Below, one piece after another: positions 30,216 through 55,877 of a stretch of 64,000 bases of DNA. The position numbers and the translations under genes are program-made. The stretch's first letter is position 1; every line of letters begins with the position of its first letter. Below the pieces are notes generated by a model. The model saw only the letters and a list, made by a program, of their open reading frames with translations. It did no database searches and was not told the origin of the DNA. Source of the stretch: a virus. The stretch spans positions 10,333 through 74,332 of IMG/VR virus record IMGVR_UViG_3300027759_000075, one strand, 5' to 3'.

Positions 30216-30768
30216 ATTTTTCCTTACAGTTGTCAAAGTGCCAACGACTCATTGATAAGAACCCGCCTTCTTTTTTACAATGCGGACATACCCTATTAGC
30301 TCGCGGCTTTAATTTCATTGATGCTCTAGTTTTGTTTTTTGATTCTTCTTTGTGTTTAGCAGGTCCATTACCGCCATTGGCCCGTTGCGCTTTACTTATG
30401 TTTGCTCTGTGTTCAGCACTTTTTGGCTTACGCATTTTTGCTTTTGTTTCTTCTGACTTAGGTACACCTTTAGCTAATTCAGATGCTTTTTTTCTTAGCC
30501 AGCCAAATAGTTTGTTATTCATCCTGGCTTCTGTGTTATGTATAGTCATAATCATTGCGGCATTAGCTAAGTGAACATTAGTAGGATGTATTTTAACAAG
30601 GAGTTGGTGAGCAAGATAATGTTCTTCAGGATAAAGACTTACAATATTTTCTTTAGCATCGGTGCCACCAAGACAACGAGGAACTATGTGATGTTTTTCA
30701 ACATAGCCTTCGCTTATCCTGCATAATGCACGATTTATTAAATTATTATAAATTTCTTGATATTTCAC
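30196..30768 (-). CDS. HNH homing endonuclease with NUMOD3-like repeats
   Basis: EKHHIVPRCLGGTD..ENI..L..EEHYLAH; SEETKAKM, SAEHRANIS; CPHC; inserted between nrdA and nrdB. Confidence 0.88.
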   Translation of the reverse strand: MKYQEIYNNLINRALCRISEGYVEKHHIVPRCLGGTDAKENIVSLYPEEHYLAHQLLVKIHPTNVHLANAAMIMTIHNTEARMNNKLFGWLRKKASELAKGVPKSEETKAKMRKPKSAEHRANISKAQRANGGNGPAKHKEESKNKTRASMKLKPRANRVCPHCKKEGGFLSMSRWHFDNCKEKYVTSAI

Positions 30769-33086
30769 TAAAGTTTACAACCTTCGCAATCGGCTTCTTC
30801 ATCAAAGTCAACAACTTCTAACTTTGTTTCTGGTTCATCTTGACCTTTACTACCGGTCTTGTTAATTAAACTATAATAAAATGTTTTCAGGCCCCAACGG
30901 TGTGCCTGCATCAAGTTCTTGGCAATCAGGGTAGTTGGTACTTTGCGGTCGGCAAAGTGTGCTGGATTATAAAAAGTGTTGGTACTGATACTTTGATCAA
31001 CATAAGCAGCAATAACTGCCGCGGTCTTGATATAACCGTCACAGTCTTTCTGTTCCCACATGAGTTGATACTTGTTTTTTAACTTGTTGTACTCTGGAGC
31101 AACTTGAATTAAACTTCCTGCTTTGCTTTCTTTAACCGTGATCAAGCTCATTGGCATTTCAATACCGTTGGTTGAGTTAATAACAACTGAACTGGATTCA
31201 ACCGGAGCCACGGCCATTAGGGTAGCATTACGCACACCGTGAACTTTCATTAGCTCACGTAATTTTTCCCAGTCTAATTCTGGTTTAAAATTAGCCAACT
31301 CATTGACTGCTCTAGCACGACGCTCCCATGGAAACTCTCCCTGGCCATAACGTGTTAATCCGCTATGACTGCACGGACCACGTTCCTTGGCTAATTCTAC
31401 AGTGGCTTCTGTCAAGTAGTAGGCTTGGTGTTCCATCCATGATTTAACTTCTTGTAGAGCATCCTTTTCACCATACAATAGGCTACGCTTGGCGTGCCAG
31501 TAGGCCAAGTTAGTAATACCAATACCCAAAGGCTGGATCTCTTGGTTACTTAACTGTGACTGAATGGAAAGAAAATCTTGGTAGTCCAGAATATTACACA
31601 AGCTACGCTGGAGTATACGACAAGCACGCCGCATGTCTTCTGGATTACGGAAAGCTCCCCAATTGATGGAACCCAACGTACAAAGAGCGATACGGCCATC
31701 GCTGTCATCCAGACGTTTAAAGGATTTAGTAGGAAGAAGTATTTCACAACAAAGGTTACTCTGGTAAATGGTATGGAATTCAGGATCAAATGGACCTTGA
31801 TTCTGAACATTGTCAATGAACACAAGATAGATACGTCCTGTGTCAGTGCGCTCTTTTAATATGCCACCTTTGAATACATCCTCGGCGGCCATAGTTTTAG
31901 TTCTTAAATCCTTACGCTTTTCATACTTGACATATAATTCTTCAAACTGTTCTGTATTCTTGTAAAAAGCTTCATACAAGTCTGGTACTTCATTAGGATC
32001 AAAGAATGTGATTGATTCTTTGTTTTTGAATCTACGCCAAAAGAAACTGTTGAGCACTACACCATAGTCCATAAAGCGAACTCGGGTTTCTTCAGTGCCT
32101 TGATTATTTTTAAGCACGATTAGATCGTCAAATTGATAATGCCAGATAGGATAAAATACCGTGGCACTTGCGTTACGAATACCACCTTGACTACAACTAC
32201 GCAAATCACCAAACCACTTTTTTAGGAATGGTATCATGCCTGTATGCATGACTTCTCCGCCGCGAATAGGAGCACCCAGGGGACGTAGGCGACCAATTTC
32301 TAATCCTATGCCGGCACGTTTGGCCGCATACTTGGCCATCATCTCCCCACTAGCAAATATGCTATCCAGGTTGTCGTCACTGCGGATAAGCACACAACTA
32401 GAAAACTGTTTAGTTGGAGTGCCAAGGCCAGCCAGGACAGGTGTAGCAAGAGTAAACAAACCATCTGACGCACAGTTGTAATACTCTTTGATGTAACGCA
32501 TACGTGCCGATCCAGGTTCTTCTTTATGAAAGACCGTAGCGGCCGCGACCATATACCTAATTTGTGGAGTCTCGTAGATCTCCTTTGTAGCGCGATTGCG
32601 TACAAGATACTTCTCAATAAGTTGTTCAATAGCTGCATAACTGTATTCCTCATCTTTGTCATGGTCAAGCATGTCGTTCATGCGGTTCCAATCTTCTTGG
32701 GTATACCACTCAAGAAGTTCAGATGTGTATAAGCCTGTGTCTACGTTTTTCTTTACAATTTCATATAGATGCGGAACATCATATGTTCCATACACATCTT
32801 TACGCAACATACTCAGGCGTTGTTTACCTGCTACATATTGATAATTGGTGTGACCTACATCTGGATTTGATTCTATATCAATTAAGTCCACAATAGCTCG
32901 CAATGTAATACCATCAATTTCTGTCGTGGTAATGCCATCGTAGAAATGCAATTGTGCTTTGATCTCAATCATACTTTGACTTACGTCAGCAATGCCTTGA
33001 CAGACTTTGGCAACCTGTGCCTGCCACTTTTCAATATGCAGTGGCTCTTTTTGTCCGCTTCTTTTAACTACTGTAATCTGCGTCAT
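30768..33086 (-). CDS. nrdA: Class Ia ribonucleotide reductase alpha subunit
   Basis: ATP cone (VVKRSG), QFSSCVL, SQGGIR, SNLCCEI, APVESSS, KTFYY, C-terminal CEGCKL. Confidence 0.96.
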   Translation of the reverse strand: MTQITVVKRSGQKEPLHIEKWQAQVAKVCQGIADVSQSMIEIKAQLHFYDGITTTEIDGITLRAIVDLIDIESNPDVGHTNYQYVAGKQRLSMLRKDVYGTYDVPHLYEIVKKNVDTGLYTSELLEWYTQEDWNRMNDMLDHDKDEEYSYAAIEQLIEKYLVRNRATKEIYETPQIRYMVAAATVFHKEEPGSARMRYIKEYYNCASDGLFTLATPVLAGLGTPTKQFSSCVLIRSDDNLDSIFASGEMMAKYAAKRAGIGLEIGRLRPLGAPIRGGEVMHTGMIPFLKKWFGDLRSCSQGGIRNASATVFYPIWHYQFDDLIVLKNNQGTEETRVRFMDYGVVLNSFFWRRFKNKESITFFDPNEVPDLYEAFYKNTEQFEELYVKYEKRKDLRTKTMAAEDVFKGGILKERTDTGRIYLVFIDNVQNQGPFDPEFHTIYQSNLCCEILLPTKSFKRLDDSDGRIALCTLGSINWGAFRNPEDMRRACRILQRSLCNILDYQDFLSIQSQLSNQEIQPLGIGITNLAYWHAKRSLLYGEKDALQEVKSWMEHQAYYLTEATVELAKERGPCSHSGLTRYGQGEFPWERRARAVNELANFKPELDWEKLRELMKVHGVRNATLMAVAPVESSSVVINSTNGIEMPMSLITVKESKAGSLIQVAPEYNKLKNKYQLMWEQKDCDGYIKTAAVIAAYVDQSISTNTFYNPAHFADRKVPTTLIAKNLMQAHRWGLKTFYYSLINKTGSKGQDEPETKLEVVDFDEEADCEGCKL

Positions 33087-35163: not shown

Positions 35164-35877
35164 TTAGGCCAGTAGGTAGTACTGCTCTAATCTGCGCCAC
35201 CAAGCATCAGACCAGTAGCTAAAATCCTCAGGTTTTAGTATGAATTCTTGATAAACCGGACGGGCCAATGGGTTCCCCATGTCGTCTACTGGCGGCTTTA
35301 CTGCCATTAGCACTACACCCTTGCGTATGTTGGTTCCATACACTTCATTGTGTGCCAGTGCATAGGCTGTAAGCTGTAAGTAATAGTCTTCAATCCACTC
35401 CGCTTTTTTAGGTTTGTTAGTCTGTTTAAAGTCCAGGATACTTTCGTCTTGTTGATGAATGCCTACACAGTCTGTTGTGCCTGCATACAGCTTGGGAAAA
35501 TACAAAGGAATTTCTACACCCCAAAATTCATTAACATTTACCAGTCCGTCTTCAATCACAGTCTGTGCCATGGCATGACTGGCCCAGCCAAACGGATTTG
35601 TTCCACGGTCCTTTAGTTCACCTTCTTTTACATAATGCTCTAGATAGGTGTGCATTCTGGTGCCGCGGTTGGCAGCTTCTGTGGTAATTTGTTGTGCTTT
35701 GGCATGCCCTACATTTTTACGCCACTGTTCTAGTGCGGCTTTAGTTTCAGCGGGTTTGGTCTTGTCTAGGATAGTGGTTACACTAGGTACTCGGCTACCA
35801 TCTGGGGTAGAATACAAGCGTCGGCCTTCATCTGTGGTACGACTTAGTTCATGATAGATAAATTTTGGATTATACAT
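35164..35877 (-). CDS. PD-(D/E)XK exonuclease (Cas4/MGME1-like superfamily)
   Basis: PSVTTIL, RGTRMH, E..L, YAGTTD, ILDFKQ, QLTAYA. Confidence 0.88.
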   Translation of the reverse strand: MYNPKFIYHELSRTTDEGRRLYSTPDGSRVPSVTTILDKTKPAETKAALEQWRKNVGHAKAQQITTEAANRGTRMHTYLEHYVKEGELKDRGTNPFGWASHAMAQTVIEDGLVNVNEFWGVEIPLYFPKLYAGTTDCVGIHQQDESILDFKQTNKPKKAEWIEDYYLQLTAYALAHNEVYGTNIRKGVVLMAVKPPVDDMGNPLARPVYQEFILKPEDFSYWSDAWWRRLEQYYLLA

Positions 35878-35883
35878 CAAGTT

Positions 35884-40463: not shown

Positions 40464-42377
40464 TTAGGCTGGTTGTTTTGAGTTGTTTATTTCGCGATTG
40501 GCCGCTGTAAATCCACCGGCTAAGCGGTTAACAGCCTTGGCCATGCCGGCTCCTGTGGCCATTACCCAGCCTTCTTGACCCGGATGTTGTAGATCCAATT
40601 GATTTAAAATATCCATCTTGATATCGTGTAGCAAGACCCAGGCTGTAAATGCCGCGGCCATGCCATCTAAATTGCTACGTGGGCTTTGGATATATTCTAC
40701 AATGTTGTTGAACTTTTTAGGGGTAACGTGTTGTTGGAGCCATGGTCCAAACTGCGCCAATAAATTATCAAACCCAGTGCCTACTCTACTATTAATATAG
40801 TCTATACATAATCGAGGCAAATCAGTGATTTGTAATGCACGAAGATCTGTAGGATCAAACAGCTGATCAATTGCAGCACCTTGACTGTTGTACACATCTT
40901 TAACTTGCTGTACTAGCTGACGATTTGGTCGTACATTTTCTTTGGCATACACCGGCTCTAATAGCAGTAGTCCAGGAACCTGTTTAAAATCAACACGGCC
41001 AATAGGCTCTTTAGGAGAACCAGGTTCTGCATACCGTGTGTGCATGGCAATACCAACTTTGCTATTGGTAATACGTTGACCTACATCGCTTGCCACTGGA
41101 ATTTTATATTCTACAGTGTTGGGTGTAAACACAAAATTACCGGCTTGTTCAGGAGGACGCTGTGTGTACAACAGGTCGCCTTGCACATATCCTTTAAAAT
41201 CTTTAGGAACAGCAGATTCTAACATGGGCCATAATTGAACATACAAAGGCAACAGTGTTTCAACGCGAGTAGCTGGTCGGCCTTGTGCTTCAGCATCACG
41301 ATCACGCTGTTCCAAATGTCTTGCCACTTGTCGTGGACTTGTAAACAGACCATTATATCCTCGAGCTGTAAATCCTGATACATCAGTAAGAACAAATGTT
41401 CCCTCTGGATCACGACCAAATACTAGAGCAGGTTTGCCATCCCACTTGACTGTGGTGGTTTTGCCTGTGTCAGCTGAGGTATGTTTGACAATGTCTAGAG
41501 CTTTTTTAATACCTGCACTGCCGCTACGGAACACAAGATCTTCTAAGTGTTCGATGCCTTTGGCACGGCCGCCTTGAACCTCGGCTTCAACAATGACCTG
41601 CATGCCTTGATTCACAATACGATCACGTAGTTTGGCTAAGAAGTTTACATCACTAACCGGTTGATATAGTTCTGCACTTTCAAGGAATGGCAGGCCTTCG
41701 CGTTCCATGTGTTGTTTAAAGTCTGCTAATTTAGCGTCACGGTTGGGATCTGTGCTAAGTGCTTGTAGAATTGTTTCTACACTGGCCAAGTCTTGACGTG
41801 TAGCTGTTTTATTCAATAATAATTTGGCTACAGCATCTGGATTGTCAGTAATAATTTTGTTGGTGGCACGATCAGCAATTCCAGCAATTTGATTCAATTT
41901 GTAACCCATGCTTTTGGCAACTGAATTCATTAGCACATTGCGCTCACGACCTTTGTACTTTGAATCTGTGGGCATGGCACCAAGTACAAATTTGCTCCAA
42001 GGTATGTTGTTTAAAAACATAAAGTCTGTTTGCACATACCCTAGGTCTGGACGACCGTTGATAGGTGTTTTAAAATGTACGCCAGCGCCGGTTTGTTTGA
42101 CCCAGTCTTCGGGTTTTTGTTTTTGGCTGGTTGCCCAGCGTGTTAATTGTGCTATTAATTGTTCTTTGGTTAATTGTTTGGCGTCAACAGCAATATCCAA
42201 ATCGCCTGAGGTGTCTTTAATGCCGGTTGATCCCAGGGTGTTGTTTTGTAGGTCAAGTCCTGGCAACATTTGCTCAAGCCATGCTAGGGTTGTTTTTACG
42301 TCAGTCTGATTAATGCGTTGGGTTAACGCACGGCCGTTGCCGTCTTTGAACACATTACCGCCTTCAAGTATGTTCAT
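40464..42377 (-). CDS. Two-domain protein: Pol-beta-type nucleotidyltransferase plus KxDG ligase-like domain
   Basis: LGSTG..SGDLDIAVD...QTDFMF in the N-terminal half; TVKWDG, VQGDLLY and QEGWVM..K in the C-terminal half. Confidence 0.6.
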   Translation of the reverse strand: MNILEGGNVFKDGNGRALTQRINQTDVKTTLAWLEQMLPGLDLQNNTLGSTGIKDTSGDLDIAVDAKQLTKEQLIAQLTRWATSQKQKPEDWVKQTGAGVHFKTPINGRPDLGYVQTDFMFLNNIPWSKFVLGAMPTDSKYKGRERNVLMNSVAKSMGYKLNQIAGIADRATNKIITDNPDAVAKLLLNKTATRQDLASVETILQALSTDPNRDAKLADFKQHMEREGLPFLESAELYQPVSDVNFLAKLRDRIVNQGMQVIVEAEVQGGRAKGIEHLEDLVFRSGSAGIKKALDIVKHTSADTGKTTTVKWDGKPALVFGRDPEGTFVLTDVSGFTARGYNGLFTSPRQVARHLEQRDRDAEAQGRPATRVETLLPLYVQLWPMLESAVPKDFKGYVQGDLLYTQRPPEQAGNFVFTPNTVEYKIPVASDVGQRITNSKVGIAMHTRYAEPGSPKEPIGRVDFKQVPGLLLLEPVYAKENVRPNRQLVQQVKDVYNSQGAAIDQLFDPTDLRALQITDLPRLCIDYINSRVGTGFDNLLAQFGPWLQQHVTPKKFNNIVEYIQSPRSNLDGMAAAFTAWVLLHDIKMDILNQLDLQHPGQEGWVMATGAGMAKAVNRLAGGFTAANREINNSKQPA

Positions 42378-44383: not shown

Positions 44384-45516
44384 AGTAGTTGACTCCATTC
44401 TGGAAACACACTTTTATAATCAATTTGACGAATTTGGTCAATTTTTTGAATAAGCTCCCAGAACGCCAAGTGTGGAGTATTGTCGATTTCAATCCCGTCT
44501 AACAACTTGTGCAATTGCGGATAGTTTGAGAATCTGTCAGATAAAATTTTCTTTGCAGTAGAATTTAAGTGCACAATATTAAAATCTCCAATAGCACGTT
44601 GAAAAATTAAATTTACAGGATCTCCATATCGATTAGTTAAAAAATTAGATTGGTACCAATCTACTAATTCTGTTAGATAATATAAATTTAAATAACTCCA
44701 AGTACAATTTATGTTAAACATATGATTATGAGGCATATTTTCTTGATACCATAATAAATTATTAGTTACCGATTTCCAATCTGCACCAGTTCGTTGATAA
44801 TTAAATCTATCGCCTACGTCATCGATGCTAAAATATAATTCAATTAACTGACATTCTCCCCACAAATTTAATAATTCTTGTGTGGCTTGTTGTGTACCAT
44901 TGGTATTATAAAATACACGAACATTGTCAAGGCCTTTAACTTTTTTTATTTCTTTAAGTAAATTAATATGGTTATTGCTCATCAGCGGCTCGCCGCCACC
45001 ATGAAAGTGCAAAGTTTTTATATTTTTAAGTAATTTTGAATCAAATGTTTCAAGTTGATTAAATTTTTCATATTTGAATTGATCGATTGTCTTAAGGGGG
45101 TAAAGTTTTTGATAGTCAGATACCCACGCTGTACTGTTGTGTGGGCCACATATAACACATTTTAAATTGCAAAGATTTCCTACGCTGTAATCTAAACCTT
45201 GTGGTGCATTTAAATCAATGTCGGTATCATAATGATAGTTTTCATATAAATTTTGGCTGGCTAAGCGACGACTTACTAATCCGTTTTCTTCAGCTTTGTA
45301 ACAACTAGAACATCCGGGAATAGGAGTATCTGTTTCTACACATCGTTTTAATTCTGCACGTTCTGGGCCATTCCAGATGCTATCTAAATCAAATACCTCA
45401 GACGTTTTAATATATCCTTTAAAGAAACTGCATGGATTATAACCTAATTGACCGTTGTAGGACCATATGGCAAGATTTTTATATATTTCATAACAGAAAT
45501 ATTTCTTGTCTTTCAT
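44380..45516 (-). CDS. Radical SAM protein with N-terminal auxiliary-cluster (Twitch/SPASM-like) Cys
   Basis: CNLKCVIC, GGEPL, YNTNGT, FSID; extra Cys in the N-terminal region. Confidence 0.88.
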   Translation of the reverse strand: MKDKKYFCYEIYKNLAIWSYNGQLGYNPCSFFKGYIKTSEVFDLDSIWNGPERAELKRCVETDTPIPGCSSCYKAEENGLVSRRLASQNLYENYHYDTDIDLNAPQGLDYSVGNLCNLKCVICGPHNSTAWVSDYQKLYPLKTIDQFKYEKFNQLETFDSKLLKNIKTLHFHGGGEPLMSNNHINLLKEIKKVKGLDNVRVFYNTNGTQQATQELLNLWGECQLIELYFSIDDVGDRFNYQRTGADWKSVTNNLLWYQENMPHNHMFNINCTWSYLNLYYLTELVDWYQSNFLTNRYGDPVNLIFQRAIGDFNIVHLNSTAKKILSDRFSNYPQLHKLLDGIEIDNTPHLAFWELIQKIDQIRQIDYKSVFPEWSQLL

Positions 45517-46922
45517 GACTGTTTGATTTGGCCTAGCAATTGTTTTAACTTGGCACTTTGCACATCTGCTGTAATTTTTACATTGTCTTCGCGCTCAACT
45601 GGACTAGCAGGCTCTGTTCCGTTAATCATTGTGCTTTTTGCTTTGATACTATCTAGTAAATTGCCTTTGGCAAAGGAATTAACAGGGCCGGCTTCCTCGC
45701 CTGGGTCAGTGATGCGCATGGTTTCAATGTTATAATCTAAATCAATTTTCATGCCTACACCTGTACTACTACGACTCTTCATACATTGTATTTGATACTT
45801 GCCACGCTCACGCATGGCACGGCTTGTGAAGATACCAAACACGTTGTCAGCTGTATTGATCTTAGAGATACCACCTGAAATATGACTGTGATCAAATTCT
45901 ACTTCTTCTACAGCACTACGATTCAACTGCGACGCTGTGACAAACAACACATTGAGTTCTTTGGCCAAGTTGCGCAACTCTTCACTCACATATTTGTCTT
46001 TGACAAACAAGTCATTTGGGCTTACTTTGGCGCTGACCGGCATCAACAAATCCAAGTAATCGCACATGATAAAATCTACTCGAATGCCTGTCTGTACTTG
46101 AACTTCTTTTATGTAACTGCGAATGTCATTGATGTTGCTCTGCGCCGGCAATGCTTTAATACGATACTGCCCAGCTTTCTTACTTACAAGTTTAACTTTA
46201 AGTTCGGTTTGATCAATGTCTTTGCGGATTTCTTTTGTGCTCATCCCGGCCAACATGGCATCAGTTCTTAGGGCGCACAGTTCTTCACTCAGTTCTAAAC
46301 TGATATAAACACCACTGAGTCCGGCCTGTAACCAACTCAATGCTATGTTCATCATAACAAGCGATTTACCCGAACCAGATCCACCGGCAAAAATGTTAAG
46401 TTCGCCACGACTGAATCCACCATACAAGATCTTGTCCATTTGTGGCCATCCTGTTGACACTTGTCCGCCCGAATTAAAGTATTTGTTGATACGAGCCTGC
46501 GGGTCAGCAAAGTAGTCTGTGCCCATGTCCTTGGTCAAACTGATTTGAACTGCATCCTTGATTAGTTTTTCTACAGGATCATACTCGCCTTTTTCCAACA
46601 AGTCGGCTGATTTTAAGATTGCACGTTCTAGTTCTTGTCTGCGAGTAAATCCCTCAAACTCAGTCATAAACCATTCAAAGTGACCTTCGTTTAGGTCAGG
46701 AATGTGATTCAATACCACGCCGGTTGCAGCTCGAATTTGGTCTGTACCCGGTAATGTTTTATATTCATTGCTATGTGTGGCAATAAACTCTGCTACTGGT
46801 CGTAAACTACGATCAAAATTTTCTGGGTTATAGATGTTCTGCACACGCACATAGCTTTCGGCGTCTTGCAACATCATTTCTAAAAATAGTTTTTGGACAT
46901 CAAGCCCGTAGTCTTTTAACAA
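45513..46922 (-). CDS. DnaB-like replicative helicase (T4 gp41-like)
   Basis: GGSGSGKS, SLEL, DYLDL, TASQLNR, KSR. Confidence 0.93.
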   Translation of the reverse strand: MLKDYGLDVQKLFLEMMLQDAESYVRVQNIYNPENFDRSLRPVAEFIATHSNEYKTLPGTDQIRAATGVVLNHIPDLNEGHFEWFMTEFEGFTRRQELERAILKSADLLEKGEYDPVEKLIKDAVQISLTKDMGTDYFADPQARINKYFNSGGQVSTGWPQMDKILYGGFSRGELNIFAGGSGSGKSLVMMNIALSWLQAGLSGVYISLELSEELCALRTDAMLAGMSTKEIRKDIDQTELKVKLVSKKAGQYRIKALPAQSNINDIRSYIKEVQVQTGIRVDFIMCDYLDLLMPVSAKVSPNDLFVKDKYVSEELRNLAKELNVLFVTASQLNRSAVEEVEFDHSHISGGISKINTADNVFGIFTSRAMRERGKYQIQCMKSRSSTGVGMKIDLDYNIETMRITDPGEEAGPVNSFAKGNLLDSIKAKSTMINGTEPASPVEREDNVKITADVQSAKLKQLLGQIKQS

Positions 46923-47871
46923 GTTGTTTCTTCCTTAGTTCTATTTTAATTTTGCTGGTTTCTTTGGCCTGCATAATAGTTATCAATGCGGCCAATCTAC
47001 CCAACTGAATTACTGCATCGTTTACATCTTTAATACCTGCGGGCCACTCAGGCATACTTACTGCCCACCCTAGTTCTACTGCACGATCCACTAACTTCAT
47101 ACCAGCGGCATCTTGATCTGGCACTACTATAGCTTCACGTCCTAGACTGCGTATTAATCTAACTTGTGCATCACTAATTTCTGCGTGTAATACTGCTAGG
47201 CCGTTGATGCTGAGTGCATCAAACACACCTTCTACTATAATTACTGTTTGCCAGTTGGACTTTTGCAAATCTGTGCCAAAAACATAACCCGGTTGTATGT
47301 CTTGAATGTACCTGGGCGTACGATCGTCTAAAAATCTTGTGGTGTGACCAACCACTTGATTATCATGTGTAAATGGAATTACTACTCCAGGACGTGGCAT
47401 GGTTTTATACAAAAATGGATAATCTAGCGGAATACATCTATTCCGCAGATACTCTTTGGCCTGCTCATTAAGTGTTTGTGTATCTGCTGGTAGATCTCTG
47501 TCTTCAAATTCAATATTTTGTAATTTATTAATAATCTCTTGGCGCTCTCCAAGTAAACCTTCTATACTCTTATGTTTAAGGCTTTCAAGATTTATGCGCT
47601 CGATTTCTTCTGTGGGTACGTTCAACCACTCTAATAGCTTACGAGCTTTGAATGTTAAATTTCTACCCAATACAAAACTAGCAGTATAGCCACAATTGAA
47701 ACACGAATAACTCCAGCCAGAATCTGATATTTTTAGACCGCCACGGCCTCTCTTATCTTGTGTGTCGCTACGATGTGTGCAACAAACAGCATTTCCAGAT
47801 AACCAGCCAGAAGATGTTTGCTTAATCTTTCGACCTTGCCTCCAGTAAGTTTCAACTGTCTGATTTATCAA
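46900..47871 (-). CDS. DNA primase (T4 gp61-like)
   Basis: Zn-binding CC...CFNC; TOPRIM VEGVFDA and PDQD; KDVND; probable TTG start overlapping the endonuclease end. Confidence 0.88.
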   Translation of the reverse strand: MINQTVETYWRQGRKIKQTSSGWLSGNAVCCTHRSDTQDKRGRGGLKISDSGWSYSCFNCGYTASFVLGRNLTFKARKLLEWLNVPTEEIERINLESLKHKSIEGLLGERQEIINKLQNIEFEDRDLPADTQTLNEQAKEYLRNRCIPLDYPFLYKTMPRPGVVIPFTHDNQVVGHTTRFLDDRTPRYIQDIQPGYVFGTDLQKSNWQTVIIVEGVFDALSINGLAVLHAEISDAQVRLIRSLGREAIVVPDQDAAGMKLVDRAVELGWAVSMPEWPAGIKDVNDAVIQLGRLAALITIMQAKETSKIKIELRKKQLVKRLRA

Positions 47872-48511
47872 TTCTTGTTACTATCCATTTGTTAATGTTT
47901 TTTGATGTTCGTATGTTTACTGTGTTAGTATAACACTTTCTATAGGCATTAAACAAGCCCCAATATGAGATTTTTAGCTCTGTTTGAAACTGTTCGGCAA
48001 ACCCTTTTAACCCAATATCTGTTTCCCAAACTCTGCCATCTGGTGATTCAATTCTATAGGATCCATTATGAGCATCACTTTTGCGTTTTTTGGTTTTTTC
48101 TGATTCAGGATTGTCTTTAAATCTTTTTAATTGCCCTTTGCTACAATTCAATGCCCTTTTTTGTTTCCAGTCGCTCGATGCATTGGCCCAAAATAGTTTA
48201 GCCGATTCTGAATCATGCCCCTCACCTCCGCCGGTAATATTATATCCAGTGTGTAATGTTTTATAATATTGTATCCAATACTTTTCTTTTGTATTTAGAT
48301 CTTGAGTTGTCCACTTATTGTTTTGCTCAATAATTTCAAATTTCATATTATCCCAACCGTATTTTCTAATTGCAATCAGAATGGGTCTTTTAATGTCAGG
48401 GTAATATTTGGCAGCCGATTGATACAATACTGCTTTTTGTTCCAGCGGTAATGTACACTTGCCAACATATTGTTTTCCAGATGGCGAGGTAATCAGATAG
48501 ATATATTTCAT
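47852..48511 (-). CDS. GIY-YIG homing endonuclease
   Basis: YIYLITSPSGKQYVG, AIRKYGWDN, EKYWI, GYNITGGG; NUMOD-like SEKTKKRKS. Confidence 0.88.
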   Translation of the reverse strand: MKYIYLITSPSGKQYVGKCTLPLEQKAVLYQSAAKYYPDIKRPILIAIRKYGWDNMKFEIIEQNNKWTTQDLNTKEKYWIQYYKTLHTGYNITGGGEGHDSESAKLFWANASSDWKQKRALNCSKGQLKRFKDNPESEKTKKRKSDAHNGSYRIESPDGRVWETDIGLKGFAEQFQTELKISYWGLFNAYRKCYTNTVNIRTSKNINKWIVTRIDKSDS

Positions 48512-48549
48512 ATACCTATTTATGCTAATCCACAATTAAAACAAATTAG

Positions 48550-49698
48550 TTATCGGTACAGTAGATCAACCACATAACCGGTACTGATCACTACTGCGGC
48601 GCCAGTCTGGGCAGGATTGTTTGGGTATGTACCTACTCCAAATCCGGCATTGGGTAGATACCAGTACCCACTTCCACCATTGGTCACAGTAATACCAGTG
48701 ACCACACCTCCTGACACTGCGGCCACTGCTGTGGCTCCGGCACCATCGCCAATGATGTTGATCTTGGGCGGTGCTAGATATCCTGATCCACCGTTGGTCA
48801 CTGTGATGCCGGTAACCACACCGTTGGTTGTTGTGGCAAAAGCTATAGCCGGAAAACTGGGTTGATCTGGTACAGCAAAAATGCTGTTGTTAAAACACAT
48901 GCGGATTAAGGGATACCAACCCACAATGTTCATGTAGATGGTGCCAGTCTTGTCCAAATAGGTAGTTGATTCGGTTACATTGTACCAAAGACTTTCATAG
49001 TTTTCGGCGGCCTGTGCTTTGATTGTTCCTGTGTAGCCATCCAAGGTCATTTGTACTGTAGTTACTGCATTAACTGGCTCAATAAAACTGCTGAAATATT
49101 CTGTGTTTGTAAAACTGTTCCAGTAGTTTCCGCCATTGGGATTACCGGCCCAGTAAGGATTACTAGGATTTTGGCTCCAGGCAGTGCCATCAACACTGGC
49201 CTGTGCTGTTAATTTAAGCGTGGGTATTGTGAGTGGAGCACTGGGCACATACTGTGGTAACACGCTGTCCACAATGTTTACAGGAGCACGGGCTCCAGCT
49301 TGAGCATTAGTAAACACTGCCTCGACTAGGCCGCCGGGTTGTGTACGTTGTATACTATAGGTGGCTGGTTGTGCTAGCACTTCCAACATTTCAGCTGTGG
49401 TCAATGTGACCTTGGCTCGGCCAGTAGTGGCACTCAAGGTAACCAGCTCCTTTTCAACTAGTATACGGTCGCCGGCAGTGTTGATTGCACGGAATAGGAA
49501 CGTACTACCTGTGATATTAACAGGTTTTTCTTGTTGATTAATGAATTCAAACAAAAGCACGTTATCTACGCCTTTGTTTATGGTTAGTTGTTTTGCGTAC
49601 ACAGGATCGTACCTATAAGTAAAAGTTTCCCCCGCACCTGTATCCATGAGTAACACTCGCGTGAGCTGTTGATAGATATAGACCTGGGTAGAGTACAT
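48550..49698 (-). CDS. Virion structural protein (baseplate/fibre-associated) with VTGITVTNGGSGY repeats
   Basis: KGVDNVLLFEFINQQEKPVNIT N-terminal domain; two GVVTGITVTNGGSGY repeats; TAAATA promoter. Confidence 0.6.
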   Translation of the reverse strand: MYSTQVYIYQQLTRVLLMDTGAGETFTYRYDPVYAKQLTINKGVDNVLLFEFINQQEKPVNITGSTFLFRAINTAGDRILVEKELVTLSATTGRAKVTLTTAEMLEVLAQPATYSIQRTQPGGLVEAVFTNAQAGARAPVNIVDSVLPQYVPSAPLTIPTLKLTAQASVDGTAWSQNPSNPYWAGNPNGGNYWNSFTNTEYFSSFIEPVNAVTTVQMTLDGYTGTIKAQAAENYESLWYNVTESTTYLDKTGTIYMNIVGWYPLIRMCFNNSIFAVPDQPSFPAIAFATTTNGVVTGITVTNGGSGYLAPPKINIIGDGAGATAVAAVSGGVVTGITVTNGGSGYWYLPNAGFGVGTYPNNPAQTGAAVVISTGYVVDLLYR

Positions 49699-49758: not shown

Positions 49759-50136
49759 ATGAACAATGATTTCTTTGAAAAACTAGCGGAAAAATACCCA
49801 TTTATAACCTTGTGTGTTTATGCCACAACGGAATACGTGGGCATTATACAAAATCAGGACGATGCTATAACTACTATCTATGATTTTGGCGCCATACAAG
49901 ACTTGGAAATCAAGCAACAATTTTTAGAGTTGGCCAATGTTTGGTGGTGGGAAAGTAATCGCAGTGTACCTATTAACATATTCCTCAAGCACGATTGGGA
50001 TCAATTTAAACCTTACCTGCGTACTTTTATTAACAAAGATTTAGAAGTATTGCACGGCCCTGTTTGTAGTCTTAGCGACATGGGTCGCAAAAAGTCTAAG
50101 AGAAAATCAATTACACTTGTTCGACGGATTGACTAA
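49759..50136 (+). CDS. Hypothetical conserved phage protein
   Basis: YVGIIQN..YDF..WWWESNR..PINIFL; divergent TAAATA promoter. Confidence 0.65.
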   Translation: MNNDFFEKLAEKYPFITLCVYATTEYVGIIQNQDDAITTIYDFGAIQDLEIKQQFLELANVWWWESNRSVPINIFLKHDWDQFKPYLRTFINKDLEVLHGPVCSLSDMGRKKSKRKSITLVRRID

Positions 50137-50689
50137 GCAGATTCATATGTAACGACACCAAGGCTGCATAGCCGATAGCGTGAGCATGTTTGAACACAAA
50201 TCCGCGGCTGTCATCACCATCCCACACCGATTCAAACACTTTGTTCCAGGCCGTGTTTTGCAGATGCGCTTTGCCAGGTCTAATAATACTAATAAATGCT
50301 GCCATTCTTGGAATAGAATCTGGCTTCATTGTGGCAAGTAAATCTGTATAATTGCCCACGTGTACTAACTGCTTTGCCCACTCAGAATCTGTCCATAAAC
50401 GTGACCAGGCGGGTTCTTGACCCAACATTTGCTCATAGTGCTCTGGGTTTTTTATCAGTTGATAAACACTCATGTTTAACAAATCTATTTTAAAATACCC
50501 CAGTTGTTCAGCTTGTTCATAATCTATAGCCGCACAAGCATTAACAGGATCATATGGAATATCAGTAACGTACACACCACTGTTATGGCGACGTGCTTGG
50601 CCTTGATGCAGTTGTCTAGCCGGGATTGCTTGAATTAATTTTAACAGCTGATCTCTATCAGCTAAATCTAAGTCAATATCTGCGCTCAT
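50111..50689 (-). CDS. Minimal DNA polymerase III alpha (DnaE/family C) catalytic-core protein
   Basis: ADIDLD, RHNSGVYV, GYFKIDLL, IIRPG and FKHAHAIGY in the same order as in DnaE; only 192 aa. Confidence 0.8.
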   Translation of the reverse strand: MSADIDLDLADRDQLLKLIQAIPARQLHQGQARRHNSGVYVTDIPYDPVNACAAIDYEQAEQLGYFKIDLLNMSVYQLIKNPEHYEQMLGQEPAWSRLWTDSEWAKQLVHVGNYTDLLATMKPDSIPRMAAFISIIRPGKAHLQNTAWNKVFESVWDGDDSRGFVFKHAHAIGYAALVSLHMNLLSQSVEQV

Positions 50690-51363
50690 TACCAACCTGC
50701 CTTAGTTAGTATATCTCGAGCGTATTCTTGATCTGCTGGATAGTCTCGAAATTTCTTCATCCAAAAATCTGCATCAATGTAGGGCCATATCATAGAGACC
50801 TGCGTGGCGTCTAACTCTGCTAGGAATTTTTGTCCTGCGGCACTATTGTAGATAATCCATGGACTGATACGTCCTGCGGTCACAGCATAGACCATGGCAT
50901 TGGTGTTGCCATACCGTAAGCAATCTTCTGCAGGGTGACCGTGTTGTTCACTCCAGTCTATACCAAACTCCATGGCACGGGCTAGTGCATCATTTACATT
51001 TTCCACACGCAAATAGTCTGTAAGATATTCAGTGTAGACGCTATCCTTACACCAGTGATCGATTTTTTTATTTTGTTTCAGTACCCACTCAGTAAATCGC
51101 GCTGGATTGATAGCTCGAACGTCTACACAATAACGACCAAACTTTACAAAAGCACGATAGTAAGGGCTTTCGCAAAAGTCATCATAAGTTTTTAGTTTGG
51201 CGCTGCCTTGTGTAAGTTCGTAAAATTTTATGTAAGCGTGAAACCCTAGACGTACTCCGGCTTCGTCTTTTTGCTGACGACGACGACGAGGTTCACATGA
51301 ATGCACTGCCAGACTAGATTCTTTAATAAAATCTTTCTTACAATACTGGCAGGTATATTTCAT
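50689..51363 (-). CDS. Hypothetical protein with N-terminal zinc finger
   Basis: CQYCKK.F..E..L..H.C; G.ISPW motif; coupled to the mini-DnaE. Confidence 0.65.
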   Translation of the reverse strand: MKYTCQYCKKDFIKESSLAVHSCEPRRRRQQKDEAGVRLGFHAYIKFYELTQGSAKLKTYDDFCESPYYRAFVKFGRYCVDVRAINPARFTEWVLKQNKKIDHWCKDSVYTEYLTDYLRVENVNDALARAMEFGIDWSEQHGHPAEDCLRYGNTNAMVYAVTAGRISPWIIYNSAAGQKFLAELDATQVSMIWPYIDADFWMKKFRDYPADQEYARDILTKAGW

Positions 51364-51806
51364 TTTTTAACTTCTTGCCCTAGCTGTTTAAGGTAAGCAT
51401 CAATGTCTTTTTTGGTATTGATCTTGGCCATTAGTTCCACTTCGTCATCTTTTAAATGTGGGAACAATTCAACAATTTGTTTTCGAATACCACTGGCGCC
51501 GGCTTCTTTTTTCTTAGGAGCAATCCATTGATGTCGTTGTGTACCTAGGCCTGGGCTCACTGCTGTAGCACATAACCATTGCAGTTTAGGATGACGATTA
51601 ATTGCAAAAAAATGTTTGTTGACATAGTGATTACTACTTTGCAAATAATAATGTTGTAACTCTGCACTGCCTTGGATACTTGAGCCCCAGCGTATCATTA
51701 GGAAGTTGCTGAACTTCTTGCGCTCTTCGTCTGTAAGGCTGGAATAAAAATCTCGATCTTTGCGATCAAAGCACATCATTTCATTTTGTATTGACAGTTT
51801 ATCCAC
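51360..51806 (-). CDS. Clamp-loader small subunit (T4 gp62-like)
   Basis: EERKKFSNFLMIRWGS, HPKLQW, HQWIAPKK; size and context fit. Confidence 0.6.
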   Translation of the reverse strand: MDKLSIQNEMMCFDRKDRDFYSSLTDEERKKFSNFLMIRWGSSIQGSAELQHYYLQSSNHYVNKHFFAINRHPKLQWLCATAVSPGLGTQRHQWIAPKKKEAGASGIRKQIVELFPHLKDDEVELMAKINTKKDIDAYLKQLGQEVKK

Positions 51807-52306
51807 TACCAAGCCTGATTGTAATTTACCACTTCACAGTTGCGACTAATGTCCTTGACAAAATAAACACAGTCAGGCTTTTCACCAATGCCTAATGGTA
51901 CACACAACATTTGACCGTTTTTTAATTTAGGAGCATACCATGTTACTTCTTGATATACATCAATAATCTCAATATCTAGAAAACTAGGACGGAAACTGCT
52001 AAGAGGGTTGAATTGAAATGCTTTAAATCCGCGATCATTAATACTGGTTAATGGCAATACTTCCAGGTCTCCTAGATCAGGTTCACCTATGAGTATTTGC
52101 CAGTCCACAGGCATACGCACTCTATGTTCGCCAACACGTAAAACTAGTGCGGGTGCTGTGAAACTTTCTAAAAAGATTAAGGGAATGTAATGATAGTCTG
52201 GGTCTTTAGGATCGCTATTATCAAATATGGCAAACCGCATGTCATCCACTTCCTCTGGTAGATGATCCAAATCAAATGGTGTGTTATCTAATGTAAGTAT
52301 ACGCAT
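51806..52306 (-). CDS. Hypothetical conserved protein
   Basis: 166 aa; PLIFLESF.AP and WYAPKLK; TATAAT 6 nt before the ATG. Confidence 0.65.
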   Translation of the reverse strand: MRILTLDNTPFDLDHLPEEVDDMRFAIFDNSDPKDPDYHYIPLIFLESFTAPALVLRVGEHRVRMPVDWQILIGEPDLGDLEVLPLTSINDRGFKAFQFNPLSSFRPSFLDIEIIDVYQEVTWYAPKLKNGQMLCVPLGIGEKPDCVYFVKDISRNCEVVNYNQAW

Positions 52307-52343: not shown

Positions 52344-53804
52344 TTATTTCCATTCTAGTTTTTCTTGAGTGAATGGATAATTAGCTTCTCGATAAAAAAC
52401 TTTGCGTTTGGTTAGATGTCTTTTCGCAAATTTGCAGGTGCTGGTTACGTCCCAGATTTGCACATGATCTTTATCTTCAGCTTTTCGTATTCCGCGGCCG
52501 ATCGACTGGATGACCCGGACAAAACTCTTGCCAGGTTCGACAAGAACAAGATTAAAAATCCTAGGCAAATTAATACCCACAGCAGCAACACCATAGGTAG
52601 CCACAATGATTTTTCCAGTACTAGTTGCCACTTCGTCATATTCATCTTGTCGATCCTTTGCTTTTGTAGCTCCACTAACAAACACTGCCTGATCGCCTAA
52701 CAAGTCCACTAAGGCATGACCGCCTGCTACACGATCTACTAACACCAGAGTATTACCTGTGGCATTAACCTGTGCTATCAGGTGTGCTATGGTTTTAAGT
52801 CTGTCTGGCTCTTCTAGTAGGAACTTTAGTTCACTTTGATAGTTAGAGAACTCTGCATGATCAACTAACTGTACCACATTCACGTGGCATTGCGCTAGTA
52901 CACCACGATCCTGTAACTCACTGGCACTGAGCTGATTAATTACCGGACCAAGACTACACTTTAAGGCTTGAAATTCAAAGGGTTCTTTAGGTATGGTTCC
53001 TGTGAGTCCCCAACGCAATGGTATACGACTCATTACACCTGTAAGCAAACTTTTTAATGCATCAGCTTTGGCCATATGCACTTCGTCAACAATAACGCAC
53101 ACAACATCTTCAAGAAACTCGCCAATAGTAACATCACCTACAGAGTTTTTTGTATTCTTCAATAACACATTCAAACTTTGCCATGTACATATAGTATGCT
53201 GGCGGCCCCATTCCTTACGATCGCCAAAGTAAACACCAACATCCTGTTGCATGTTGATATAGTCTTTTTCTGTTTGTGTTACTAGACTCTTGTTGGGCAC
53301 AATAACAATGGTGCGACCATATGGTGCCACTGCATTACTGAGTGAGGCTGTGATTACAGTCTTGCCTGCGCCAGTGGCGATCTCCTGGATACATTGTGGG
53401 TTCTCAAGGAAGTTGTTGATGATCTCAACTTGATAGTCGCGCAACTCCATTGGTTTACCTTCTAATGGATGTCCTTTTCCCCACACAATATGACTGAATG
53501 TTTTTTCTGTCACTTTCTCAAAAGTAAATGTCGTAGAATAATCTCGTTGGTCATCTAAGTCAATGTCATAGTTAAACTTTTCAAGTATAGGAATAATCTC
53601 CGGTAGCAAGTTTACATAAGTGCTACCACCCAGTTGGAAGTAACTTACCTTGCCGTCCCATCGTCCAAGTCTAACAGCGGGCAAGTAACGGGCGCCCGGA
53701 ACATCATACTTAAACGCATTAACTAAAGCGCGGCGAGCATCAAGTTCAAGTCCTTCAATTTTGATGTTTACTTCGTCTCGAATTATAATAGTGGCTGTTT
53801 TCAT
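52344..53804 (-). CDS. uvsW: SF2 DNA helicase UvsW
   Basis: LRDYQ, ATGAGKT, DEVH, GLTGT, QSIGRGIR. Confidence 0.9.
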   Translation of the reverse strand: MKTATIIIRDEVNIKIEGLELDARRALVNAFKYDVPGARYLPAVRLGRWDGKVSYFQLGGSTYVNLLPEIIPILEKFNYDIDLDDQRDYSTTFTFEKVTEKTFSHIVWGKGHPLEGKPMELRDYQVEIINNFLENPQCIQEIATGAGKTVITASLSNAVAPYGRTIVIVPNKSLVTQTEKDYINMQQDVGVYFGDRKEWGRQHTICTWQSLNVLLKNTKNSVGDVTIGEFLEDVVCVIVDEVHMAKADALKSLLTGVMSRIPLRWGLTGTIPKEPFEFQALKCSLGPVINQLSASELQDRGVLAQCHVNVVQLVDHAEFSNYQSELKFLLEEPDRLKTIAHLIAQVNATGNTLVLVDRVAGGHALVDLLGDQAVFVSGATKAKDRQDEYDEVATSTGKIIVATYGVAAVGINLPRIFNLVLVEPGKSFVRVIQSIGRGIRKAEDKDHVQIWDVTSTCKFAKRHLTKRKVFYREANYPFTQEKLEWK

Positions 53805-54667
53805 TGTAAGGTAACTTGTGTAATGTGCTGATTTTGCTTAATTGCTTCTATTAACTGATCTCTAGGTTGGGTTTCAATGAGTTCTGCTACAGGAAAACGC
53901 AAAGGTAACAGTCTAGGATCTTGAAATGCTGTAAACCCTTGATCAAAGAAAAAATCTCTATGTAGATTAAAATGTTTCTGCATTCTAATTAATTTGTCAG
54001 AAATATAGTCGACTGTTTCCTCATGCATGCGAACATTGAAGTCTGCTGAATAATGATTAAAAGGTTTAAATGCATCATCACTTATGTAGTTATCACGATC
54101 TTGTGTAAGGTCCTCAAGGGTTTTGCCTATCTCAGAATAGTTCAAACATACGCTACCAAATTTGGGATTTAAAGTTCCATATTCATGCATAACTTCTACA
54201 GGTAACGTGTTGATCTTTGGCATGCCAAACCAAGTGCAAACAAATCTAGGACGATTGCCACGTGCGGCGCTTTCGCATCTGTGGACACTGACATTTAAAT
54301 TGGCTAGATGTTGTCTTGTCTCTTGAGGTATGGGGCCATATTTTGGATGTACTGGATGTTGGTCTAACAGGCCATGCCATTGTTCAAAAATATTGTGTAG
54401 ATAATTTAATGTGTCTTGATCGTTGACCGTAGATAAGTCCCGAGTGATTAACGGTTGCCAACTATTAATTCCTTGGATACATTCTTTTATTTTTACCAAG
54501 GCAATACGTTGGTCTTCGTCTTGGGTGTTAAACCCATAAAATCTTTTAGGGTCATCTAACGGCCACTGCTCTCGTTTACTCATACGTTCGAGCCATAATT
54601 GAGCAATTGAATTATCCAATACTTGAAATTGCAATTTTAAATCCAATAGATTAATGGTTAAGATCAT
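53801..54667 (-). CDS. Hypothetical protein
   Basis: 288 aa; LNYLH..FE and LN..VH.CE helices with possible metal ligands; TTGATC-17-TATACT 5 nt before the ATG. Confidence 0.6.
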   Translation of the reverse strand: MILTINLLDLKLQFQVLDNSIAQLWLERMSKREQWPLDDPKRFYGFNTQDEDQRIALVKIKECIQGINSWQPLITRDLSTVNDQDTLNYLHNIFEQWHGLLDQHPVHPKYGPIPQETRQHLANLNVSVHRCESAARGNRPRFVCTWFGMPKINTLPVEVMHEYGTLNPKFGSVCLNYSEIGKTLEDLTQDRDNYISDDAFKPFNHYSADFNVRMHEETVDYISDKLIRMQKHFNLHRDFFFDQGFTAFQDPRLLPLRFPVAELIETQPRDQLIEAIKQNQHITQVTLQ

Positions 54668-54764: not shown

Positions 54765-55814
54765 CTAACTGTTCTTCATACAAGTGCTAGCGGCCAAAGC
54801 CTTCCAGTTATCACCCGATACTTTAGTCAAGTCTGCAATCTTAAGTGCCATACGCAAGCTCATTTCACGTAAACGACTTTGATTAGCGTCCATAAAGCCA
54901 ATGATCTCGTCCCCTTGCTCTTGAGTAAAATCGTAGTCTGCAAATAACTCACCCTTTAGGTAAATCTGTTTGATACGCAAGAAACGATCACGCATAGTGT
55001 TAAGGGTAAGATCTAGGAAGTGACAACGACTTTGTAATGCTTCCAAATGGTCTTGTAACTTCTTGCTCTTGAGGTTTTGGAACTGTAGATTGGTAATAAA
55101 AATACACGATCCTTTGAAGTCAAACATGTCTGGAACGCCTTCGCGGCGCAACATAGCACTATCACTATTCCAGTAGATTCTACGCTTCTTACCTGAGTCC
55201 AATGCGGCCTTGAGAATGTTCAAGCTCAAGTCATCTTGAAACACTGAGTCACAATCGTCAAACACCAAGACATTGTTTTTGTCTGAATGTTTATACAGGG
55301 TGCAATACAGACCAATTGGAGTCATTGCACCTTTAATAACTTCATACTTGACACGACGGCCTGACAATTTGTCAAACAACCCTGAATGTTCTAGTTGTTT
55401 TTCTACACCATAACTTTTACCTACACCGGGAGGGCCAACTACAATCATTGCACGGACATCGCCGGCAATTGTGGCCTTGGTCATTTGGTCAAGAATGTCA
55501 AAGCGTTCGCCAATACGAGCAATAACTTCTTCGTCAGTTTCAACCGGCGCTTTAGCATGAACATGAACTTGGGCGTGAGCAATGGGTGCTACAAATTCAC
55601 CTGCTGACACTGATTCGGCAGTAAATTCAATATCTTCAATTGTGTTTACATTAACACGAACTACATCTGGTAAGTCTGGGCCAAAAAAGCCATCTGATTT
55701 TACAGTCACGTAGCCTCCTTTGGCTCCTGTTTGGTAACCCTTCACCAAATTAAAGGTCACATTGTTTACGGGTTGATTACGGTATATTCCGTTTTTAATA
55801 ATTACTGTACTCAA
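54765..55814 (-). CDS. P-loop AAA+-type ATPase
   Basis: GPPGVGKS Walker A, LVFDDCD Walker B, IFITN sensor, ALQSRC Arg finger; TTG start after AAGGAG. Confidence 0.85.
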   Translation of the reverse strand: MSTVIIKNGIYRNQPVNNVTFNLVKGYQTGAKGGYVTVKSDGFFGPDLPDVVRVNVNTIEDIEFTAESVSAGEFVAPIAHAQVHVHAKAPVETDEEVIARIGERFDILDQMTKATIAGDVRAMIVVGPPGVGKSYGVEKQLEHSGLFDKLSGRRVKYEVIKGAMTPIGLYCTLYKHSDKNNVLVFDDCDSVFQDDLSLNILKAALDSGKKRRIYWNSDSAMLRREGVPDMFDFKGSCIFITNLQFQNLKSKKLQDHLEALQSRCHFLDLTLNTMRDRFLRIKQIYLKGELFADYDFTQEQGDEIIGFMDANQSRLREMSLRMALKIADLTKVSGDNWKALAASTCMKNS

Positions 55815-55819
55815 GGTTA

Positions 55820-55875
55820 GCTCCTTTTTATTAACTATACAACTATTATAACAAATTGGGTATTTTTGGTCAACC
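55820..55875 (-). promoter_or_regulatory. Early promoter/RBS cassette, copy 3
   Basis: TTGACC-17-TATAAT plus AAGGAG; near-identical to 25882-25937. Confidence 0.85.
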
Positions 55876-55877
55876 AC

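Follow-up and report, generated by a model that had tools for sequence, protein, structure and literature searches.

The 64-kb stretch of DNA analysed here (the window) belongs to the 74,332-bp IMG/VR contig IMGVR_UViG_3300027759_000075, which derives from a giant phage of an uncultured freshwater lineage and has a CheckV completeness of approximately 22%. On its minus strand, within a group of replication genes, lies a short open reading frame (ORF) that carries the catalytic motifs of the alpha subunit of bacterial DNA polymerase III (Pol III alpha or DnaE, a family C polymerase) and probably encodes the C-terminal part (hereafter the C-unit) of a minimal polymerase core divided between two proteins. 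Sequencing runs that contain at least half of the window's sampled words bear freshwater-metagenome labels, and all runs containing the stretch are DNA runs labelled as freshwater, lake-water or unspecified metagenome. A megablast search of cultured phages with 10 kb of the window gave no match.

The C-unit frame is open to the stop codon at 50111 from either an ATG at 50689 (192 aa) or an in-frame TTG at 50695 (194 aa). The ATG is likely to be the start, because most close homologues are 192 aa long; residue numbers (D6, D8, etc.) follow the 194-aa numbering, i.e., the TTG start. The original prediction, made from the DNA letters alone, described five motifs arranged in DnaE order, a gene free of stops and frameshifts, and coupling through TAATG to the gene of a zinc-finger protein. 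All three descriptions proved accurate: the motifs are found on the minus strand in that order (Table 1), the frame is uninterrupted from either start, and the stop of the zinc-finger gene and the start of the C-unit overlap by one base (GGT TGG TAATG AGC GCA GAT). The second motif, HNSGV, is presumably the counterpart of the DnaE HAGGV-type motif that comes after the thumb, a domain that is missing here.

Table 1. Features of the replication module, with positions counted from the first base of the window
Feature	Position	Strand	Evidence or counterpart
Probable C-terminal (Mg2+-/template-binding) unit of a split minimal Pol III alpha-like protein	50111..50689	-	phrog_11778, PDB profile, AlphaFold (AF2) model
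DIDLD, first two catalytic carboxylates D6/D8	50666..50680	-	E. coli alpha D401/D403; compare MPDFDVDF, 399-406 of 2hnh
HNSGV, palm beta-hairpin motif	50573..50587	-	H37 and G40 at least 90% conserved
KIDLL, K69 and third catalytic Asp D71	50477..50491	-	E. coli K553/D555; compare KFDFL of DnaE
RPG finger motif, R139 P140 G141	50273..50281	-	E. coli 639-641
FKHAHAIGY, counterpart of the DnaE FNKSHSAAY finger motif	50168..50194	-	E. coli 756-764; K169, H172 and A177 at least 90% conserved
224-aa protein, N-terminal C2HC/C2H2-like zinc finger, coupled (TAATG) to the C-unit	50689..51363	-	phrog_11058, E 7e-52
150-aa helical protein, conserved neighbour	51360..51812	-	phrog_11758 (no assigned function), E 4.5e-19; syntenic homologues
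166-aa conserved neighbour	51806..52306	-	phrog_11279, E 1.4e-49; syntenic in PAC2, Atu_ph07, 121Q and Vibrio phage
UvsW-type superfamily 2 (SF2) DNA helicase, upstream end of module	52344..53804	-	Pfam ResIII, Helicase_C, weak UvsW_N; 48-50% identity to UvsW of relatives
125-aa convergent ORF, 26-nt overlap with the 3' end of the C-unit	49759..50136	+	phrog_11637, E 3.9e-34
DnaG-type primase	46900..47871	-	26-35% identity to syntenic primases of relatives
DnaB/gp41-type replicative helicase, downstream end of module	45513..46922	-	36-49% identity to DnaB-like helicases of relatives

Homology and predicted fold of the C-unit

Searches with the single sequence say little about the C-unit: phmmer against the PDB returned no match, and Pfam offered DNA_pol3_finger alone, at an E-value of 0.24, which is below threshold. 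In PHROGs, the protein matches phrog_11778, annotated as 'DNA polymerase', with an E-value of 2.5e-51 (residues 5-189 against positions 7-193 of a 197-position profile), and there is a weak secondary match to phrog_405, the DnaE family. In an alignment of 81 diverse full-length homologues (A1), residues D6, D8, K69, D71 and P140 are invariant, and D10, H37, G40, R139, K142, K169 and H172 are conserved in at least 90% of the sequences. When the A1 profile was compared with the PDB, the matches with an E-value below 0.1 were exclusively Pol III alpha chains (from E. coli, Thermus aquaticus and M. tuberculosis, E 7e-6 to 9e-5). The profile alignment pairs DxD, the whole of K69-x-D71 (with K553-x-D555) and RPG with the E. 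coli residues listed in Table 1, and FKxxH with residues 756-760.

The structural evidence points in the same direction. The AlphaFold model of the C-unit has a mean predicted local distance difference test score (pLDDT) of 95.8 and a predicted template modelling score (pTM) of 0.88, and all of its top 15 Foldseek matches in the PDB are family C polymerases. Superposition with VIA-align gave Z 9.9 for PolC 3f2b (root mean square deviation, rmsd, 3.5 Å over 190 of 194 residues), Z 9.6 for Taq DnaE 3e0d and Z 8.5 for E. coli 2hnh (186 residues aligned, spanning 397-781), compared with Z 4.0 for the best unrelated fold. With profile matches in the PDB that are confined to DnaE and a structural match well above unrelated folds, the resemblance to DnaE clearly exceeds anything that chance could produce.

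The regions between the motifs had been described as collapsed, and the superposition supports this in detail: E. coli residues 419-538 (approx. 120 residues, including the thumb) are replaced by approx. 33 residues, approx. 10 residues stand in for 642-738, and nothing remains beyond about residue 781. Measured against the features that define DnaE and PolC, the 192-aa protein possesses the three-carboxylate palm of the Pol-beta type, with its elements in DnaE order. The GS triphosphate-binding motif is absent from the chain, which starts 5 residues ahead of DxD, and so are the thumb, the full fingers, and the clamp-binding and OB domains.

The N-unit and its co-occurrence with the C-unit

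The absent half of the palm is found in relatives as a separate protein of approx. 170 aa (the N-unit), which has a GVGRGSS triphosphate loop and matches Pfam DNA_pol3_alpha (PF07733). Searching complete genomes with PF07733 revealed one small ORF each in Phosso (177 aa, E 8e-13) and PAC2 (169 aa, E 4e-10), in both cases distant from the C-unit gene. These two N-units finish with ...WGVGRGSSVASYVL...EFL[KN]-stop and thus correspond to the part of DnaE that contains the GS loop and extends to just before DxD; in the profile of the alignment used for folding fused forms (A6, see below), GRGS is aligned to R362-G363-S364 of E. coli. The split point appears to be fixed, because all 79 of the retrieved N-units finish with EF[LI][RK]. 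A profile of 6 N-units found no match in the PDB at E <= 0.01, although matches to DnaE were obtained with Pfam and with the A6 profile. The first ~70-90 N-unit residues (e.g., in L095:1204-1713), which lie ahead of the PF07733-matching region, are poorly conserved.

The two units generally occur together. Four close IMG/VR relatives (G001-G004) have C-units that are 82-87% identical to that of the window, and it is from these relatives that the presence of an N-unit and of a family B polymerase (PolB) in the present phage may be presumed. In the complete genome among them (G001: 344 kb, terminal repeats, 100% complete), the C-unit lies at ~152 kb, the N-unit at 257 kb and an ORF for an 889-aa PolB at 291 kb. 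All three genes occur in G002 and G003, and the C-unit and N-unit, with no PolB match, in G004, which is 43% complete. Ten further long contigs were selected for carrying an N-unit; a single C-unit is present in 8 of them, including all 4 that are at least 90% complete, and the 2 that lack it are 66-76% complete. The five near-complete relatives (99-100%; G001, G005, G007, G008 and G009) each contain the C-unit, the N-unit and a PolB of ~890 aa, and the distance between the N-unit and the C-unit is nearly constant in them (~96-105 kb). Judged by this spacing, gene order is seemingly stable across the freshwater clade. Among cultured phages, N-units and C-units are equal in number in each host genus counted (Escherichia 34/34, Pseudomonas 11/11, Erwinia 8/8, Xanthomonas 4/4, Yersinia 4/4).

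As stated in the original prediction, T4-like phages normally use a family B polymerase, and this expectation is borne out to the extent that the relatives retain PolB too. A family A polymerase, which had been considered as well, is absent from the four complete relatives tested. PHP fragments, which might have been encoded elsewhere in the genome, were found neither in the contig nor in the four complete relatives (PF02811, E <= 1), in a search whose control matched in 14 of 14 genomes.

Natural fused forms

In a few metagenomic proteins, which are not encoded in the window, the two units form a single chain. The first of these, P0176, has 375 aa, of which residues 190-373 are the C-unit and the first half is the N-unit, with the junction ...EFIKDNKEGIYNIADFDID...; two others (P0271 and P0272), each of 376 aa and 78-81% identical, come from different assemblies. 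Such forms are rare (3 clusters, compared with thousands of split forms): a word-based search for longer forms of the C-unit found none, and they surfaced only in an exhaustive search of representatives. The Pfam DNA_pol3_alpha match of P0176 (residues 97-207) crosses the junction.

P0176 was folded with an alignment (A6) that combined 46 N-units and 8 C-units with the 3 fused forms; this composition was chosen because MAFFT put the N-units out of place when many C-units shared the alignment. The resulting model has a pLDDT of 87.3 and a pTM of 0.84, with residues ~80-375 mostly above 90. It superimposes on the Taq DnaE ternary complex with Z 22.2 (rmsd 3.0 Å, 290 residues aligned), on M. tuberculosis DnaE1 with Z 22.1, on PolC with Z 21.0 and on E. 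coli alpha with Z 15.9 (residues 75-375 against 271-773), and all other folds, i.e., generic Pol-beta nucleotidyltransferases, remain at or below Z 4.1. According to this model, P0176 folds into a DnaE-like palm and fingers. In a quick, unfinished and unrooted maximum-likelihood tree, the fused forms make up one tip clade (support 100), which nests in a supported clade (95) of separate C-units of 206-222 aa. Because the fused forms nest among separate C-units, the tree suggests that the fusion is secondary.

Selection, distribution and previous description of the family

The gene contains no stops in 80 environmental relatives, and all motif residues are invariant among them. The median Nei-Gojobori ratio of nonsynonymous to synonymous substitution rates (dN/dS) is 0.035 (range 0.024-0.090) over the 26 comparisons in which dS is unsaturated. 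By these estimates, selection on the C-unit is strongly purifying and the gene is not a relic. The possibility that homologues would reveal relaxed selection or loss of the catalytic Asp residues, raised in the original prediction, thus finds no support, and the Asp residues are kept in all 81 homologues.

Homologues were detected by tblastn in 96 phage records, all of them from jumbo phages, at 34-41% identity; the carriers include PA5oct-like and Rak2-like phages (121Q, PBECO4), Atu_ph07, Phosso, XacN1 and a Vibrio phage. The family comprises 5825 clusters at 90% identity, and an exhaustive search yielded 355 clusters at the 50% level. The C-unit is labelled 'DNA polymerase III alpha' or 'DnaE-like' in some of the phage records, and the system as such has been published: a split minimal Pol III alpha of group 2.2 jumbo phages, composed of an N-terminal NTP-binding unit and a C-terminal Mg2+/template-binding unit and encoded alongside PolB, was described by Iyer, Anantharaman, Krishnan, Burroughs and Aravind (2021, Viruses 13:63; PMC7824862). 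In the sections of that article devoted to the split enzyme, one-strand synthesis or repair is proposed as its role, and the split enzyme is suggested to model the ancestral state of the bacterial replicase (PMC7824862).

The protein of the window is a new, uncultured member of this system, which is already represented in PHROGs and in some GenBank records. It shares with the published proteins the family, the length, the motifs, the split point and the surrounding replication module; nothing essential differs, and it is at most 41% identical to the cultured members. The distant N-unit and PolB of the published system would, for the present phage, be known through its relatives. The rare fused 375-aa forms and the deep conservation of the gene module go beyond what those sections of Iyer et al. 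contain.

Gene neighbourhood

The C-unit gene occupies a fixed place in a module with the order UvsW, 166-aa protein, 150-aa protein, 224-aa zinc-finger protein, C-unit, convergent 125-aa ORF, virion-like gene, primase and DnaB. PAC2, Atu_ph07, 121Q and Vibrio phage 2.275.O keep this order, with identities of 22-50%, and Phosso keeps part of it. The description of the locus as a T4-type replisome cluster does not hold in full: genes for UvsW, a primase and a DnaB/gp41-type helicase are there, but a scan of the genes revealed none for a polymerase, a clamp or a clamp loader. UvsW, DnaB and a DnaG-type primase are, together with PolB, hallmarks of group 2 phages.

PAC2, Phosso, Atu_ph07, 121Q and Vibrio phage 2.275.O each have a homologue of the 224-aa protein at the corresponding place, and C5, C8, H21 and C23 of its finger are invariant. 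The 125-aa ORF is likewise convergent in PAC2, Phosso, Atu_ph07, 121Q and a Vibrio jumbo phage (35-49% identity). All four small conserved neighbours fall in PHROGs without an assigned function. The gene at 51360-51812 had been called gp62-like; this designation finds no support, since searches of Pfam and PHROGs for clamp-loader likeness gave only phrog_11758 and weak, sub-threshold Pfam matches, with no detectable similarity to gp62. Because of their fixed linkage and translational coupling, the small neighbours are candidates for accessory factors.

Several other genes in the window were characterized in passing. The virion-like gene (48550-49698, minus strand) encodes a 382-aa protein with two GVVTGITVTNGGSGY-type repeats in its C-terminal part and weak PHROG matches to baseplate-wedge/virion structural proteins, and relatives have a 'virion structural protein' at this place. 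Between it and the primase gene lies a gene for a GIY-YIG homing endonuclease (47852-48535, minus strand). The five reference phages have no gene at this position, which suggests that a mobile gene has inserted itself among the replication genes. Just upstream of uvsW is a 288-aa ORF (53801-54667, minus strand) without a Pfam or PHROG match; it was considered as a counterpart of the syntenic 'DNA polymerase exonuclease subunit' of 121Q and rejected for want of similarity (BLASTP E 2.8). Upstream of the UvsW block, a 370-aa P-loop/AAA protein (54765-55877, minus strand) matches phrog_1250 and, faintly, a DnaC-like loader; BLAST revealed no counterpart in the loci of 121Q and the Vibrio phage, although these have a RecA-type/P-loop gene in that area. 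Upstream of the replication module lie the genes for the small and large subunits of a class Ia ribonucleotide reductase (29115-33086, minus strand; phrog_86 and phrog_84) and for a 238-aa exonuclease (35164-35880, minus strand; phrog_298), which is a possible candidate for a proofreader acting in trans. The sole PHROG match of a gene at 40464-42377 is phrog_455, which has no assigned function.

Proposed mechanism

We consider it probable (roughly 0.85) that the protein of the window is the C-terminal unit of a two-piece minimal Pol III alpha-like enzyme of group 2.2 (Rak2/PA5oct/Atu_ph07-type) jumbo phages, which receives its N-unit in trans and performs auxiliary templated synthesis. The C-unit would supply D6, D8 and D71, the Lys ahead of the third Asp, and a shortened finger with RPG and FKxxH; it would thus amount to E. 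coli alpha ~397-781 minus the thumb and most of the fingers, and would be without the other half of the Pol-beta-type palm, i.e., the helix and GRGS loop for the incoming nucleotide triphosphate. The two units presumably associate into a non-covalent heterodimer, which would rebuild one Pol-beta-type active site. In this site, the GRGS loop would hold the triphosphate of the deoxynucleoside triphosphate (dNTP), D6, D8 and D71 would bind two metal ions, and the short finger would handle the template and the dNTP. An intein does not appear to be involved, and the halves would have to join non-covalently, because EFLR is directly followed by the end of the N-unit and DxD is preceded by only ~5 residues in the C-unit. 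Such an enzyme might carry out templated DNA synthesis auxiliary to the family B replicase, e.g., in primer extension, one-strand synthesis or repair.

The fixed place of the gene beside the primase and helicase favours a role associated with the replication fork, and a primer-extension-type activity may be put forward as a speculation. In B. subtilis, DnaE serves PolC in this manner, extending primers and then handing them off. By analogy, the mini Pol III could be specialized for the fork, where it would cooperate with the neighbouring primase-helicase and extend primers before hand-off to PolB, with the zinc-finger protein and the 166-aa, 150-aa and 125-aa products acting as DNA-binding or accessory subunits that replace the lost thumb and clamp-binding domains; we regard this extended scenario as rather unlikely.

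It should be noted that several observations weigh against a two-piece enzyme in this phage. On the 74-kb contig, which covers about 22% of a genome, an N-unit was not found with PF07733, phrog_405, tblastn with the PAC2 N-unit or a degenerate GVGRGS DNA pattern, and neither was PolB. In the model of the fused form, the first ~70 residues are of low confidence (pLDDT 47-70), and in the underlying alignment the last ~9 residues of the N-unit are slightly misplaced. dS is saturated in 54 of the 80 comparisons, which leaves dN/dS approximate. Processive replication by the enzyme is unlikely, because it has no thumb, clamp-binding, OB or proofreading domain. In addition, a literature search retrieved no report of a biochemical or genetic test of activity, heterodimer formation or role.

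Alternative explanations

The original prediction offered two ways of understanding so short a polymerase core, namely a naturally split or minimal enzyme whose missing domains come in trans, possibly from 50689-51363 or 51806-52306, or a repurposed nucleotidyltransferase. The idea of a split enzyme completed in trans stands, with the distant N-unit as the partner, whereas the nominated donors have to be given up. Translational coupling and an order kept in five distant jumbo phages would be in keeping with a donor role for the adjacent genes, and the zinc finger could bind DNA. However, neither Pfam nor PHROGs links either product to a family of DnaE, PHP, OB or clamp-binding domains, profile searches of the PDB with the 224-aa and 166-aa proteins revealed nothing DnaE-like and no relatives beyond a single C2H2-type finger, and the ESM Atlas returned no DnaE-like protein and no relatives with a named family. 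Judged from their sequences, these two proteins are not the source of the missing DnaE domains, and since the true palm partner is encoded elsewhere, we find it very unlikely that adjacent genes supply them; an accessory-subunit role would be a different claim. It is also hard to credit that the 192-aa protein is a self-sufficient minimal polymerase that acts alone. Such a view can draw on the presence of three carboxylates and finger motifs in one confidently folded chain, but the palm half with the GS triphosphate-binding motif is missing, and a separate, co-occurring protein ends exactly at the split point. Moreover, the rare natural forms fuse the N-unit to the C-unit, and the resemblance to DnaE rises from Z 9-10 for the C-unit model to Z 22 for the fused model.

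A decaying remnant of a captured host dnaE would account for a gene of which only about one sixth of the DnaE length is left. With a dN/dS of ~0.04, no stops in 80 relatives, invariant catalytic residues, 5825 clusters at 90% identity, a uniform length and a compact, high-confidence model, this explanation has practically no chance and may be taken as refuted by the selection and conservation data. A repurposed nucleotidyltransferase, which might carry out template-independent tailing, act as a lesion-bypass or repair polymerase or produce a nucleotide signal, is doubtful but deserves to be taken seriously, the more so as it overlaps the two-piece polymerase with respect to role. It is compatible with the fact that the thumb and the clamp-binding, OB and PHP domains have been lost, and with the presence of a full PolB in the complete relatives tested, and the nearest folds outside family C are generic Pol-beta nucleotidyltransferases. 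In DnaE, however, the RPG and FKxxH finger motifs serve in the handling of template and dNTP, and it is these DnaE-specific motifs that are conserved. The constant association of the gene with those for the primase, DnaB and UvsW also argues against repurposing, and the likeness to DnaE/PolC (Z 22) is specific in comparison with other nucleotidyltransferases (Z <= 4.1).

Comparison with known polymerases

The two-piece phage enzyme, as reconstructed here, can be set beside three known systems. The bacterial DnaE and PolC enzymes (2hnh, 3e0d, 5lew, 3f2b) likewise have a Pol-beta-type palm with the same three carboxylates, a Lys-x-Asp strand and finger motifs of the RPG and FNKSH types, and these elements follow one another in the same order. 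The phage protein differs in that it retains only a small part of the fingers and is without the PHP, thumb, beta-clamp-binding, OB and tau-binding domains, and the palm of the phage system is divided between two polypeptides. In cyanobacteria, a family C polymerase is also produced from two distant genes, and a naturally split intein unites its halves (Caspi et al. 2003, as cited in PMC3919608). There, splicing yields a full-length DnaE, whereas the phage halves would leave no room for an intein and their product would be a minimal core. Pol-beta nucleotidyltransferases such as ANT(2''), Cid1 and the CCA-adding enzymes have the same core fold class and the same GS...DxD...D logic of the active site, but they are without DnaE-type fingers, and their structural similarity to the phage system is far lower than that of DnaE (Z <= 4.1 vs. 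22).

Significance

If active, the two-piece enzyme would be the smallest known family C core, with approx. 360 aa in two chains compared with more than 1000 aa in bacteria, and would reveal on which parts of DnaE catalysis depends. It would also make clear the reason for which giant phages equipped with a family B replicase retain a second, unrelated polymerase under strong selection. The fused 375-aa forms would represent a single-chain minimal family C core that is ready for experiments, and together with the conserved module they provide concrete handles for experimental work. Given its great abundance in metagenomes (see above), the family is a widespread, uncharacterised component of phage replication.

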